From contig JAHJAU010000081.1 of assembly GCA_018813785.1 (NCBI GenBank), positions 1-59,687 on the forward strand: a stretch of 59,687 nucleotides of DNA. The letters run 5' to 3'. The position numbers and the translations under genes are program-made. The notes beneath the pieces are model-generated. The model saw only the letters and a list, made by a program, of their open reading frames with translations, was not told the DNA's origin and did no database searches. The DNA comes from Patescibacteria group bacterium (lineage in GTDB: Bacteria; Patescibacteriota; Patescibacteriia; SG8-24). Positions 51,683-56,930 of this stretch are shown here, in pieces; the first letter of the stretch is position 1; the number at the start of each line of letters is the position of its first letter.

Positions 51683-52096
51683 TTACTGCAACCTTTCTAT
51701 ATATGTCTCTAACATCACTGCTGCTGCCACCGCATCTCGGTCAAATTTCTTCCGGGAGCTGGTTCCAAATTCGCGATGCATTCGATCAGCTATAACCGTA
51801 GTCAAACGCTCATCTTCAGCGCAGACTTCAAGTGGTGTTATTTGCTCTAATTCTTCGATAAAAACGCGAACCTTCTCAGCTGTTTCACCACCTTCGTGCC
51901 CGGCGAGCGACACAGGCAAACCAACTACAATCATTTCTGCGCCTTCTTCAATTGCCGCCTCGGCTACTCGTTGAGCTGCACCCTCGCCACCTTCAATTGT
52001 CTTTAGTGGTTCAACAAAAAATGGCGCCGTATCGCCGATAGCTAGACCAACTCTTTTGGTTCCGTAATCTACTCCAAGTAAACGCATAATCTTCAA
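51683..52096 (-). CDS. ruvX: Holliday-junction resolvase-like nuclease RuvX (YqgF)
   Basis: MRLLGVDYGTKRVGLAIGD N-terminus and the ...DERLTT... motif. It overlaps the map stop by 4 nt. Confidence 0.9.
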   Translation of the reverse strand: MKIMRLLGVDYGTKRVGLAIGDTAPFFVEPLKTIEGGEGAAQRVAEAAIEEGAEMIVVGLPVSLAGHEGGETAEKVRVFIEELEQITPLEVCAEDERLTTVIADRMHREFGTSSRKKFDRDAVAAAVMLETYIERLQ

Positions 52097-52875
52097 ACAT
52101 TGTCGGGTAAAGGAGTTACTCGCAGCGTACCGTCTTCGGTAATGGCTAATGTCTCTTCAAAATGAGCTGAACGACGACCATCGGCTGTGATGATTGTCCA
52201 GCCGTCAGACATCAGGCGCACCGCATCCACACCTGCATTAATCATGGGCTCAATAGCAAAAGTCATACCCGGTATAAACTTAACTGGAGACAATGATGGA
52301 TCAAAATAATTTGGGATGCGCGGATCTTCGTGTACTTCTCGACCAACACCATGCCCAACCAAATCCTTCACGGTTGAAAAACCATGTCGCTGCACGTGCT
52401 TATCGATGGCCCGACCAACGTCGCTTACCCAACCGCCGGCCACTGATTTGCGAATACCAATCGCTAAAGCTTCTTTGGTAACCTGGATTAACTTTTTTGT
52501 CTCAGTATCTACCTCCCCCACTATAATAGTGGCGGCCATGTCAGTGCACATACCAGCCAACCACATACCCATATCAATTTTTAAAATATCACCCGACTTC
52601 AATTTGCGTCCAGGTGTGGCGGGTGCGTGTACTACCTCTTGATTGATACAAGTACAAAGCGCGGAAGAGAATGGCGGATCACCCGGATCAGATTGATAAT
52701 CCTTGAAAGAGGGTCCATCGCCCTCAGCTCGCATTCGCCGTTCAGCCAATGCGTCTAGCTCGTCAGTGGTGATGCCTGGCTCAACCATATCAGCCAGCTC
52801 ATGCATAATATCTGCCAAAATTGCCCCACCTTCGCGCAGTGCTTCAATCTCAATTTTTGTCTTAAGTAAAATCAT
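52093..52875 (-). CDS. map: Methionine aminopeptidase type I
   Basis: The pita-bread metal ligand pattern is present (GDILKIDMG, HGVGREVHE, FAIEPM, FEET). 260 aa. Confidence 0.93.
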   Translation of the reverse strand: MILLKTKIEIEALREGGAILADIMHELADMVEPGITTDELDALAERRMRAEGDGPSFKDYQSDPGDPPFSSALCTCINQEVVHAPATPGRKLKSGDILKIDMGMWLAGMCTDMAATIIVGEVDTETKKLIQVTKEALAIGIRKSVAGGWVSDVGRAIDKHVQRHGFSTVKDLVGHGVGREVHEDPRIPNYFDPSLSPVKFIPGMTFAIEPMINAGVDAVRLMSDGWTIITADGRRSAHFEETLAITEDGTLRVTPLPDNV

Positions 52876-53024: not shown

Positions 53025-53636
53025 CTAACCAGAAAATTTGGAACTGTGCCGAAGAATGAATGACTTGATCCACTGCTCGAACTCAGCCAATGTACCATCG
53101 TTGCAATAAAGATTTTCCGGATCAACTAAGGCCAGACAGCGATCAACCTGTTGGCCAGCAATAGGCTGACCAATACCGCGATCACGATCATCCATCTTCA
53201 AAAAACCCTCAAGTTCAGCCGGGTCGCCACCTTGCTGACGCTTCATAGCACGTTGATAACGCAACCAGGTTGGTGCAGTGATACCAACTAAAACGAAACG
53301 CGAACTAACCAGTCGTTGCAACGTTTCAATTTCACCCGGATTGCGCAAGCCATTAATGGCTGTCTGCCGATTATTTTCCTGGGCTTGCATCTCAAGCAGG
53401 CGTCCGGCCCAATAACCATTGTCACCGGAATGCTTCCGTCCCCAATCACCCACATCCATGAGTTGTTCCACGGACGGATCGGTGATGCCTCGACTGGCAC
53501 ACTCCTCACGAACCGCATCTGAAACACGACGCACGTTAAAACCATGCGTTTTTAAAACCCGCGATAATTCATCCTTGCCGCCGGCTTTCAAACCGGTGAT
53601 ACCGACCACTAGATCAAAATTGTCTATCAGACTCAT
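53025..53636 (-). CDS. P-loop nucleotide kinase-like protein (dephospho-CoA-kinase-like / archaeal UPF0200-like)
   Basis: It has a VVGITGLKAGGKD P-loop, INGLRNPGEIETL, and MDDRDRGIG with a late NDGTLAEF. The layout resembles UPF0200/CoaE-like small kinases. I chose ATG 53636 (MSLIDNF). The ORF is open to 53669. Confidence 0.65.
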   Translation of the reverse strand: MSLIDNFDLVVGITGLKAGGKDELSRVLKTHGFNVRRVSDAVREECASRGITDPSVEQLMDVGDWGRKHSGDNGYWAGRLLEMQAQENNRQTAINGLRNPGEIETLQRLVSSRFVLVGITAPTWLRYQRAMKRQQGGDPAELEGFLKMDDRDRGIGQPIAGQQVDRCLALVDPENLYCNDGTLAEFEQWIKSFILRHSSKFSG

Positions 53637-53719
53637 GTTGCCTCCAGGATAATTAAAAGATCCTATCAATAATTAACCCGATTTGGGACCTAATTTCAAA
53701 TGCTTGAAATTAGACTGAT

Positions 53720-54376
53720 TTAGATACCAATGGCCGCGACTATCGCTGTCTCGACATTGATAATTGATTGCTCTCCTTCAACCTCGCGCAATACTCCAGC
53801 CCGGCGATAAAACTCAATCAGTGGAGCTGTTTCAGAATGATACACCTCAAGACGATGCTTAATTGTATCAACTGTATCATCATCACGTTGCATCAAATCA
53901 TTTCCACAACGATCACATTTATTCGGATCTTTCTGCGGTGGATTGAACTCAACATGATAACTAGCTTCACATTTTTTATTCGAACAGACTCGACGACCAG
54001 ATAAACGCCGCATCGCTTCTTCGTCAGAAATACGAATAAATACCACATCAGTTAATACTCGACCAGCATCTTCTAAAATCTTGGTTAACGATTCGGCTTG
54101 CCCGATATTTCGCGGATAACCATCGAGAATGAAACCACGCAAAGCATCATCTTCAGCGATGCGCTCACTAATGGCTTGGTCGACAATGGCCGGTGGAATC
54201 AATTCCCCAGCTTCAACATATTTAGCGATTTCGAGACCTAAACCAGTTCGACGTTCGATTTCCGCTCGAAAAAGATTTCCGGTGGAAACCGCAGGAATAC
54301 CTAAACGAGATGATAATAATTCAGCTTGAGTACCTTTACCCGAACCCTGAATGCCGAGCATGATGATATTGTACAT
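53720..54376 (-). CDS. adk: Adenylate kinase (zinc-lid type)
   Basis: It has a GIQGSGKGTQA P-loop, GFILDGYPRN, and a Cys4 lid (CSNKKC...CDRCGNDL). Confidence 0.95.
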   Translation of the reverse strand: MYNIIMLGIQGSGKGTQAELLSSRLGIPAVSTGNLFRAEIERRTGLGLEIAKYVEAGELIPPAIVDQAISERIAEDDALRGFILDGYPRNIGQAESLTKILEDAGRVLTDVVFIRISDEEAMRRLSGRRVCSNKKCEASYHVEFNPPQKDPNKCDRCGNDLMQRDDDTVDTIKHRLEVYHSETAPLIEFYRRAGVLREVEGEQSIINVETAIVAAIGI

Positions 54377-54390
54377 AGACTCTCGATAAG

Positions 54391-55266
54391 TTAACGAATG
54401 AATAATGCAAAGGCGTAACCAACGATTAAACCAGCTACAATGGGTGGCAGTGCCGGCATGGGTCGACGCAGCTTCTGCTTCAGAAATAAAACGTTCATGA
54501 ACAAAAATCCGACCACTGCCCCAATAACCACCGGCATAGCTGACCTGATTCCTTGAGTTGAAACAACGGAAACTAAAAACAAGACAGGGAGAACTAGATC
54601 ACCAGTGCCCAAAAAAGCATAATCCGGCCGAATACTAACCTTAGAAATTCGGCTCATTAAATTTGCCGGATTAACCGGAAGAATCATGGCAAAAAAAACT
54701 TTTCGCCGCAATAAAGATCGGGCTAATTTTATCATGTGCTTGGTAAAATAAACGGCGATCACATCATAAATGCTTAACAAAACCAAAATAACCAATAAAA
54801 CGACCGGATTAAAACCTGATCCGATAGCGGCTGCCACCCCCGATAAACCAAAAGACACAATTAAATTAAAAACTATAACCGGAGGATTGGTGTAATAAAT
54901 AAATGCACCAACACAAAATATCAACACACCAACCGAAGGGCCAAAGAAGGCATCAGCGATCGAACTGGCACCAACCAAAATAGCCACAGCAAAAAGCGCT
55001 CCCAATAATTTACTTCCGCGAGTTGATCTAACCAAAAACAAAACGAATAAAGTCATCGCGAAAAAGACTACTAAAAAATTTAAAGATGAAAATGACCCCC
55101 GGCTGATTCCGTTGATTCCATTAATCATTGGATCAATTCGGCTAGCAGTGGCGATAGACAAAAAACTTATTAGAAGTAAATAAAACACTCCTTGAATAAC
55201 TATAAAAACCGAGTTTTTATTTTTAATCTTTTGACTTATGGTGGATGGTTCTTGGTTGGCAGACAT
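54391..55266 (-). CDS. Presenilin / signal-peptide-peptidase-like intramembrane aspartyl protease
   Basis: 291 aa with about 8-9 TM segments. All three family signatures are present in the right order: SIYD(168)VIAVYFTKHMIKLA, FLGTGD(223)LVLP, and P(271)ALPP near the C-terminus. Confidence 0.8.
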   Translation of the reverse strand: MSANQEPSTISQKIKNKNSVFIVIQGVFYLLLISFLSIATASRIDPMINGINGISRGSFSSLNFLVVFFAMTLFVLFLVRSTRGSKLLGALFAVAILVGASSIADAFFGPSVGVLIFCVGAFIYYTNPPVIVFNLIVSFGLSGVAAAIGSGFNPVVLLVILVLLSIYDVIAVYFTKHMIKLARSLLRRKVFFAMILPVNPANLMSRISKVSIRPDYAFLGTGDLVLPVLFLVSVVSTQGIRSAMPVVIGAVVGFLFMNVLFLKQKLRRPMPALPPIVAGLIVGYAFALFIR

Positions 55267-55437
55267 GATAAAGATGAAAAAATATAGAAAAATGTGAGGG
55301 CTCTCCCATCAGGTGAATCCGAATATCGGAATATTCAGAATATAAAGAGTTACTATAGTGACCGGAATTAGATATTCGACCAAATCCTACCTGCCTCGCA
55401 TTATCCGACCTTTAGCTTTCCTCAGTATACCAAAAAA

Positions 55438-55461
55438 GACGGCTTTTCAGCCGACCTTTTT
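55438..55461. terminator. Short bidirectional terminator-like hairpin
   Basis: An A6 run, CGGCT (55440-55444) / AGCCG (55449-55453), then a T5 run. On the minus strand it follows the repeat-containing spacer downstream of secY. Confidence 0.45.
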
Positions 55462-55483
55462 ATTTACTAGCTAATTGATGTTT

Positions 55484-55513
55484 GCAGGAAGCGACATGCA
55501 GATCGCTCAGCCT
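55484..55513. repeat. 30-nt direct repeat, copy 1 (GCAGGAAGCGACATGCAGATCGCTCAGCCT)
   Basis: Identical 30-mer at 55611-55640. Internal segments are complementary to 55534-55541, 55552-55558 and 55597-55606. Confidence 0.9.
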
Positions 55514-55610
55514 AAGAAGATCTGGCCAATTTCAGGCTGAGATGAGCTGTGTGTCGCTGGACTAAGTGAGAGCGTGAAGCGCACTGGTGTGGTGCGCTGA
55601 GCGATCGAAC

Positions 55611-55640
55611 GCAGGAAGCGACATGCAGATCGCTCAGCCT
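55611..55640. repeat. 30-nt direct repeat, copy 2
   Basis: Perfect copy of 55484-55513, 127 bp downstream. It ends 12 nt from the secY stop codon. Confidence 0.9.
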
Positions 55641-55652
55641 GGAATTGGCTCC

Positions 55653-56930
55653 TTATAGTTGTTCGTATTCACGCATGGTCAACTGCGAATTTACCTGATT
55701 GACTATCTCAATTGCCACTGATACCACGATCAACAAGCTGGAACCGCCAATCGCCATCGTTGCTGTACCAAGAGATTCTTGCATAATAATCGGCAATACC
55801 GCGATCGTTGCCAAGAAAAACGCGCCAGCCGGCATAATACGGTTGATGGTCCGCTGAATAAACTCAGCTGTTGGTCGGCCTGGACGAATACCCGGAACAT
55901 AACCTCCTTGCTTCTGAATATTATCTGCTACCCGATCCGGATGAAAAATAACGGCCGTGTAAAAATAGGTAAAACCAAATACTAAAACAAAATACAAAAT
56001 ACCGTAAAATAGCTGATTTTGAAACAATCCAATGGTTTTTAGAGACAAATCAGCCAACCATTCAGTCTTAGCCCGCGTAAATAATTGAGCCACCATGGTT
56101 GGAATCAACACAATGGAAATGGCGAAGATAATCGGTATTACACCAGCCATGTTCACCCGCAAAGGCAAGAAAGTCTGAGATCCACCAACTGACCTAGCTC
56201 CACGCATGCGCTTAGCATAAACGATGGGTACATTTCTCTGACCTTCGGTGATAAACACTACACCGGCAACAGTCAAAATCGCCAGCACGGCAAAAGCAGC
56301 CCAGTACACCACCTGTGATGAATCAAAGGTAACCAATGCCTGCTGTAGTGTAGTTGGTAGGTTGGCAATAATGCCCGCGAAGATAAGAATGGAAATACCA
56401 TTACCGATTTTCCGCTCTGAAATAAGCTCACCTAACCACATCAAGAAAATCGTTCCACAAGACATGGTAATCATCATCAACACCAGCTCAAACATGCCTA
56501 AATTTGAAGAAATTATTCCGCTACCAGCCTGTCGAAGCAGAGTGATAATACCGTAAGACTGTAGTAACGCCAGCGGCACTGTGGCCAGTCTAGTATATTG
56601 GTTTATTTTCTCCTGACCGGACTGGCCTTCTTTCTGCATCTCCTCCAGACGCGGAACTATCATCGCGAGAAGCTGAAAGATAATCGAAGCTGTAATATAA
56701 GGACCGACACCCAATGCCACCACGGAGAATGTTTCCATTGCTCCGCCGGAAAACATGTTATAAAGTCCGAGAATTTGATTTGAAGCAAAGTAATCCTTCA
56801 GGGCAACTGTGTCCACCCCAGGAATCGGTATATGCGCTGCTGCCCGAAAAAGAACGAGCATTAACAATATAAAACCAATGCTGTTCCGAAGGTCTTTGGT
56901 CTTCCAGATTTGCTGGAGAGTCTTCATCAT
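55653..56930 (-). CDS. secY: Preprotein translocase subunit SecY
   Basis: 425 aa with 10 TM segments. It has LRNSIGFILLMLVLFR..AHIPIPG, the GISILIFAGI plug/ring region, and GGYVPGIRPGRPT. Confidence 0.95.
   Translation of the reverse strand: MMKTLQQIWKTKDLRNSIGFILLMLVLFRAAAHIPIPGVDTVALKDYFASNQILGLYNMFSGGAMETFSVVALGVGPYITASIIFQLLAMIVPRLEEMQKEGQSGQEKINQYTRLATVPLALLQSYGIITLLRQAGSGIISSNLGMFELVLMMITMSCGTIFLMWLGELISERKIGNGISILIFAGIIANLPTTLQQALVTFDSSQVVYWAAFAVLAILTVAGVVFITEGQRNVPIVYAKRMRGARSVGGSQTFLPLRVNMAGVIPIIFAISIVLIPTMVAQLFTRAKTEWLADLSLKTIGLFQNQLFYGILYFVLVFGFTYFYTAVIFHPDRVADNIQKQGGYVPGIRPGRPTAEFIQRTINRIMPAGAFFLATIAVLPIIMQESLGTATMAIGGSSLLIVVSVAIEIVNQVNSQLTMREYEQL

Follow-up and report, generated by a model that had tools for sequence, protein, structure and literature searches.

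The secY–adk locus and its extra genes

The window analyzed here, a stretch of DNA of 59,687 nt, belongs to a Patescibacteria (CPR) genome of 1.19 Mb that is assembled in 84 contigs and is 97% complete. On its minus strand, secY is followed by a 386-nt spacer, by a gene for a presenilin homolog (PSH) of the intramembrane aspartyl protease type and then, after 14 nt, by adk, an extra gene encoding 214 aa and map. The close homologs of the protease are labeled Patescibacteria by NCBI. An earlier note, made from the letters of this DNA, had described a gene inserted between secY and adk and another additional one that separates adk from map. The first arrangement is real and, as described below, is kept across the order to which the genome belongs; the second gene is likewise present, as an ORF of 214 aa. 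The features of the locus, in the order in which they are read on the minus strand, are as follows.

55653-56930, minus strand: secY, 425 aa, upstream neighbor of the protease gene (PF00344, E = 4e-103).
55267..55652, minus strand: spacer from secY to the protease gene, 386 nt, with an imperfect hairpin and two copies of a 30-mer.
55440..55453, minus strand: intrinsic-terminator-like hairpin 3' of secY, CGGCTGAAAAGCCG followed by the T-run TCTTTTTTGG (pattern scan and sequence; putative terminator role).
55424..55432, minus strand: possible extended -10 element, TGGTATACT, right after the terminator T-run (read from the sequence).
54391..55266, minus strand: protease gene, encoding a predicted PSH-type presenilin-family intramembrane aspartyl protease with nine transmembrane helices (TM), catalytic D168 and D223, and PAL at 271-273.
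53720-54376, minus strand: adk, 218 aa, 14 nt after the protease stop (PF00406, E = 3e-42).
53025-53669, minus strand: second extra gene, its 214-aa product P-loop kinase-like and akin to archaeal UPF0200 / AdkA-like proteins (PDB 3lw7 and 3h0k, E = 5e-13).
52093-52875, minus strand: map, methionine aminopeptidase, 260 aa (PF00557, E = 2e-42).

The secY–protease spacer, which had been called structured, indeed is so. In addition to the terminator-like hairpin, it contains an imperfect, roughly 124-nt hairpin (about 55525-55648; fold z = -4.67) and a direct repeat of 30 nt, the two identical copies of which (55484-55513 and 55611-55640) are found nowhere else in the genome. The search of the 386-nt spacer against Rfam returned no match at E <= 1. 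A 12-bp hairpin is also present in the secY–PSH spacer of a relative from the same genus. The candidate -10 element TGGTATACT, which the consensus promoter scan did not flag, would give the protease–adk unit its own promoter and a leader of about 157 nt. Across the clade, the distance from secY to the PSH gene ranges from 31 to 771 nt, whereas the PSH gene and adk are 1-95 nt apart, in most cases less than 15 nt. Because the secY side has a terminator-like hairpin within a gap that is long and variable, as opposed to the tight gap on the adk side, the PSH gene appears to be coupled to adk and not to secY, and the space after secY is best described as a variable slot.

The second extra gene and adk itself show variation of their own. 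The only solved relatives of the 214-aa kinase-like protein are the structures of Sulfolobus SSO1041 (3lw7, 3h0k); it also gives weak matches to AAA_18 and PRK08356 and bears a weak likeness to the kinase part of a model of an anti-phage dCTP deaminase. In many genera of the window's family, protease-less genomes included, its gene comes after adk, and it is absent from this position in the order's second family. In three relatives, all of genus g11 (genomes G021, G019 and G023; loci L003, L004/L044 and L010), the protease gene is immediately followed by two adk copies in tandem, which are 47-56% identical to the Adk of the window.

A stand-alone presenilin-type protein

The minus-strand ORF at 54391-55266 starts with ATG and encodes 291 aa, while the public gene call for the protease on this contig (P0002) is 221 aa long and starts 70 codons late. 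Full-length homologs of 289-291 aa align to the longer protein with 80% identity over 100% of its length and with 52-57% identity over 98-99%, and residues 21-40 form the first helix of an AlphaFold2 model, with pLDDT values of 94-97. Since full-length homologs cover 98-100% of the protein and this helix is confidently modeled, homology and model together identify the 291-aa start as the right one; the 221-aa call would drop TM1.

The protein carries the YD, GxGD and PAL motifs in canonical order, intact and at the positions at which they had been recognized. The first motif, Y167-D168, is located within SIYDVIAVYFTKHM, the GxGD motif is formed by G220-T-G222-D223 within FLGTGDLVLP, and the PAL motif by P271-A-L273-P-P. 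In an alignment of 31 homologs, extending down to 21% identity, Y167, G220, G222, P227, L273 and P274 are invariant, as are the two aspartic acids, D168 and D223, expected to be catalytic, and A272 is kept in at least 90% of the homologs. Judged by this invariance, and because they align with the catalytic YD, GxGD and PAL motifs of the archaeal PSH, the motifs are more than a chance resemblance.

Profile and structure searches assign the protein to the same family. It matches Pfam PF06550, the family of archaeal-type presenilin homologs that Pfam names 'SPP', with 54.7 bits (gathering score 23.9) and covers positions 38-278 of the 283 in the profile. The sole significant sequence match in the PDB is the PSH of Methanoculleus marisnigri (4hyc, 4hyd, 4hyg and 4y6k; E = 2e-13), with YD, GxGD and PAL in register. 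The NCBIfam PSH equivalog NF041679 is matched with 72.7 bits, under the equivalog cut-off of 125, and by these scores the protein is a member of the PSH family but no NCBI equivalog of archaeal PSH. Neither PF04258 (SPP/SPPL) nor PF01080 (presenilin) gave a match to it at E <= 1.

The AlphaFold2 model, which was built from the homolog alignment, has a pLDDT of 86.8 and a pTM of 0.85 and contains nine membrane helices. Y167-D168 is placed inside helix 154-175 (TM6), aligned to the YD of PSH, and G220-T-G222-D223 is at the start of helix 221-238 (TM7), aligned to the GMGD of PSH, while P271-A272-L273 directly precedes the last helix, 273-290 (TM9). All 17 Foldseek matches in the PDB with E <= 1e-3 are to PSH, human SPPL2a or presenilin-1; unrelated transporters come next, and with probabilities below 0.2 only. 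Thus, the presenilin/SPP-type family proposed in the earlier note has been upheld by the profile, the sequence and the structure searches, none of which confidently assigned the protein to an unrelated transporter family. The A24 type IV prepilin peptidases (PF01478), the other GxGD family, were also considered and were rejected, as the protein has no A24 match; the genome's own A24 prepilin peptidase gene is located on another contig (C59:16172-16477). As read from sequence and model, the protein is a stand-alone, nine-helix, di-aspartyl GxGD-type presenilin/PSH (MEROPS A22) and a predicted intramembrane endopeptidase, with D168 on TM6 and D223 on TM7 as its catalytic pair.

Among characterized systems, the PSH of M. 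marisnigri (MCMJR1; 4hyc, 4hyg, 4y6k) is the best structural match, with TM-scores of 0.58-0.75. The two proteins are alike in size (291 vs. about 300 aa), in their nine-helix fold and in their predicted orientation, with the N terminus inside (N-in), and YD on TM6, GxGD on TM7 and PAL before TM9 align residue by residue. Like the archaeal protein, that of the window is a single-gene enzyme without cofactor genes nearby. However, the two are only about 24% identical, the host of the window protein is bacterial, its TM6–TM7 loop is shorter and its gene lies in a secY–adk operon. Presenilin-1/2 of gamma-secretase (PF01080) shares the fold (Foldseek E = 1e-4, TMq 0.65-0.69), the motifs and the predicted orientation. 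In contrast to presenilin, to which it is about 15% identical, the window protein lacks the large cytoplasmic loop that needs endoproteolysis, and partners corresponding to nicastrin, APH-1 and PEN-2 are not expected for it. The SPP/SPPL enzymes (PF04258) are GxGD di-aspartyl proteases that likewise have nine helices and work free of cofactors, and SPPL2a (9k92) is a fold match; they differ in orientation, as discussed below. The proteins of Patescibacteria that NCBI names 'presenilin family intramembrane aspartyl protease' (among them P0005, P0011, P0029 and P0036) are 28-54% identical to the window protein over 94-99% of the length and do not differ from it in kind, and some of them are encoded in the same secY–adk slot (for example, at locus L050).

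The founding paper on PSH screened archaea only (PMC2947513), and our literature search returned no paper tying presenilin to CPR or Patescibacteria. The literature treats presenilin homologs as eukaryotic and archaeal, while annotation pipelines already name them in Patescibacteria. A small, cofactor-free bacterial presenilin that shares the orientation of presenilin itself could be another tractable model for gamma-secretase-type catalysis.

Distribution and history of the secY–PSH–adk arrangement

Matches to PF06550 were found in at least 29 of 41 relatives. They came from 15 of the 23 members of the window's family and from each of the 13 members of the order's second family, and none came from the four genomes of other families of the class. 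Across the phylum the family is patchy, with matches in at least 20 of 301 sampled genomes. The figures of 29 and 20 are lower bounds, as the PF06550 genome census missed the divergent copies of genus g16, which are discussed below. Scanning the GTDB species representatives by pattern yielded at least 579 confirmed stretches, and the best 80 of these are nearly all from Patescibacteria.

The arrangement of the window is conserved across one order and absent from PSH loci outside it. Within the order, secY–PSH–adk is present at every locus with readable flanks, including those of Candidatus Uhrbacteria RIFCSPHIGHO2_02_FULL_46_47 (L050) and Parcubacteria GW2011_GWA2_47_26. At PSH loci outside the order, neither secY nor adk was found within 1.5-3 kb. 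The neighbors there are unrelated (MgsA, Lon, a D-Ala-D-Ala carboxypeptidase, DUF763, a beta-CASP RNase and others), and none is conserved.

In an IQ-TREE phylogeny of 65 sequences, the 23 sequences from secY–PSH–adk loci group in a single clade (support 98/93), which is recovered in 98% of bootstrap trees, and a quick tree of 120 rows gives the same grouping. All secY–PSH–adk loci (23-26) are thus contained in a single clade within the PSH of Patescibacteria. Because these loci form one clade, the trees indicate a single entry of the gene into the secY–adk slot in the ancestor of the order, followed by vertical descent with several losses. Sites without the gene are seen inside the window's family: secY and adk are 5 nt apart in G014 and 285 nt apart in G008, and in G006 an interval of about 860 nt contains no long ORF.

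As to whether the window protein is archaeal or bacterial in affiliation, it falls within the PSH of Patescibacteria, and the quick tree had nested DPANN archaea in the bacterial clade. This nesting was set aside, since a tree with the archaea together is 32 log-likelihood units better than the quick, free one and was itself not rejected (p-AU 0.83).

Several database records of PSH genes carry unexpected titles. Five 'binchicken' MAGs (L044, L051, L065, L076 and L103) are titled 'uncultured Gammaproteobacteria' and have typical Patescibacteria L15–secY–PSH–adk loci, and the protease sequence of L044 is identical to that of the relative G019 (L004). In addition, a 3.2-kb contig titled Sulfurovum sp. 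(L093) has a PSH gene. The titles of these Gammaproteobacteria and Sulfurovum records are probably wrong, or the contigs mis-binned.

Orientation, probable role and a sister genus with eroded motifs

The distribution of basic residues in the AlphaFold2 model is strongly asymmetric, with 19 lysines and arginines in the loops of the N-terminal side (the N terminus and loops 2-3, 4-5, 6-7 and 8-9) compared with three on the opposite side. The N terminus contributes three of these, loop 2-3 three, loop 6-7 nine and loop 8-9 four. Mean counts for the N-terminal and the other side are 16.4 and 1.3 in the clade, 18.8 and 2.2 in other Patescibacteria, and 14.7 and 1.3 in archaeal PSH. By the positive-inside rule, on which the orientation call rests, the N terminus and the TM6–TM7 loop are predicted to be cytoplasmic, which is the orientation of presenilin and not the inverted topology of SPP. 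Signal peptides are type II-oriented, so that for an enzyme with its N terminus inside, their clearance would not be the favored role. The detergent assays of archaeal PSH were made with type I substrates only, and a strict orientation selectivity of PSH-type enzymes is presumed. The SPP and SPPL enzymes, which have the N terminus outside, are inverted relative to presenilin, and the difference is taken as the reason that they act only on type II helices, signal peptides among them, whereas presenilin acts on type I helices (PMC7366577, PMC2947513). With its predicted presenilin-like topology, the window protein is expected to favor type I substrates.

We consider it probable that the gene encodes a PSH protease that was inserted once, lies N-in and serves the general turnover of type I helices from within the adk unit, with a history of the operon, not a SecY partnership, behind its location. 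In such a scheme, the protein would reside in the cytoplasmic membrane with its N terminus and basic TM6–TM7 loop inside, and its substrates would be type I-oriented (N-out, C-in) transmembrane helices with short ectodomains. The role would be a housekeeping one, namely 'membrane clearing' or membrane-protein turnover as opposed to the removal of signal peptides, and expression would be constitutive, from the first gene of a protease–adk–(kinase)–map unit. The position beside secY would then reflect operon history, not physical partnership with the translocon. As a physiological role, the general turnover of type I-oriented helices is our best guess.

The earlier note had instead suggested a role in clearing signal peptides beside the translocon. 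In this explanation, the enzyme, functionally coupled to SecY, would act as a signal-peptide peptidase and clear what signal peptidase cleavage leaves behind in the membrane, in place of a missing SppA. The gene does lie directly downstream of secY across the whole order, Pfam names the family 'SPP', and SppA (PF01343) was not found in the genome and is present in only two of the 41 relatives. However, PF01343 is missing in the other 39 relatives whether PSH is present or not, and the PSH-less relatives are also without SppA, so that complementarity between the two enzymes was rejected. Moreover, the orientation predicted here is opposite to that of SPP, the gap after secY holds a terminator-like hairpin and is long and variable, with the tight join being to adk, and outside the order PSH stands beside unrelated genes and never beside secY. 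The genome is also well supplied with M50 site-2 proteases, the enzymes responsible for signal-peptide clearance in E. coli. We therefore regard a SecY-coupled signal-peptide peptidase as unlikely, albeit the best placed of the alternatives. The M50 site-2 protease genes number about six and include two adjacent pairs (C13:32611-33630, C31:8689-10394, C64:4400-5886, C67:11053-11526).

The picture of a genome rich in anchored surface proteins, with anchor remnants to be cleared, has also found no support. No sortase was found in the 97%-complete genome, and a crude hydropathy census of 1131 ORFs returned no family with a signal peptide and a C-terminal anchor. The idea that the stubs left by sortase are the substrates was accordingly dropped, as the genome yielded no sortase and this crude census no obvious group of secreted proteins with C-terminal anchors.

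Rhomboid proteases were considered as a further possible complement to PSH. None was found in the genome, while one is present in one of the 41 relatives and in 40 of the 301 genomes from across the phylum. None of the 20 PSH-positive genomes has a rhomboid, compared with 2.7 overlaps expected (p of about 0.06, with kinship ignored), but 241 of the 301 genomes have neither enzyme, and complementarity is not convincing. That about 80% of the sampled Patescibacteria are without both PSH and rhomboid implies that the function of PSH is dispensable or is covered by other enzymes. Where PSH is present, it could point to the way in which membrane helices are turned over in genome-reduced bacteria without rhomboid and SppA.

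Still less likely, in our judgment, is a switch of the regulated-intramembrane-proteolysis type, in which the enzyme would free the cytoplasmic or the extracellular domain of one particular single-pass membrane regulator, as gamma-secretase does with Notch, and would not be engaged in bulk clearing. This is the best-known role of presenilin (PMC2947513). The protein also evolves fast, and the identity of 52% between the window PSH and that of its same-genus relative, compared with 86% for SecY, is compatible with a co-evolving, lineage-specific substrate. Nevertheless, no substrate or regulator gene is linked to PSH in any lineage examined, the gene is placed in what appears to be a constitutive housekeeping operon, and it has been lost within the family without visible replacement. 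For the window itself the gains of the analysis are modest, in that the family is confirmed, the start is moved from 221 to 291 aa and the tie to the translocon is weakened. What is documented beyond the window is secY–PSH–adk as a lineage marker and a sister genus with decaying motifs.

This genus, g16 (genomes G016, G020 and G022; loci L128, L129 and L130), is sister to the genus of the window with 100/96 support in the careful IQ-TREE analysis. Its three genomes each have an open PSH homolog of 290-294 aa in the secY–adk slot, and the Pfam genome search returned zero PSH matches in them. In these copies, the TKHM that follows YD is lost, as is PAL, and the GxGD motif reads DVVD in G016, GIGD in G022 and, with Glu in place of Asp, GIGE in G020. 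Between G020 and G022, PSH is 64% identical, compared with 96% for SecY and 85% for Adk, and the ratio of PSH to SecY dN is about 15 vs. about 4 in other pairs. The dN of the g16 PSH is 0.25, far under a saturated dS; saturation at synonymous sites affects nearly every pair, such that only relative dN is usable and dN/dS is a bound. By comparison, the window protein and 22 of the 25 other tabulated clade members strictly keep YD, GxGD and, where the row reaches it, PAL. By these sequence comparisons, the PSH of g16 looks like a protein under relaxed constraint or with a changed function.

In a broader conjecture, presenilin-type proteases would be an old, unrecognized component of the Patescibacteria envelope, kept within the secY–adk operon of this order on account of an action on newly inserted membrane proteins, with g16 revealing a second, non-proteolytic function comparable to the debated protease-independent roles of eukaryotic presenilin; we hold this to be doubtful, more so than a regulatory switch. 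Least likely of all is that the function kept is not, or not only, proteolysis but a structural, scaffold or chaperone-like one for which the motifs, although intact in the window, are dispensable: the g16 genes are indeed open, of full length and in the same slot with changed motifs and a dN well below the saturated dS, but the strict retention of the motifs in the rest of the clade points to catalysis as the selected function, and a rate about 15 times that of SecY in g16, against about fourfold elsewhere, fits relaxed constraint toward loss.
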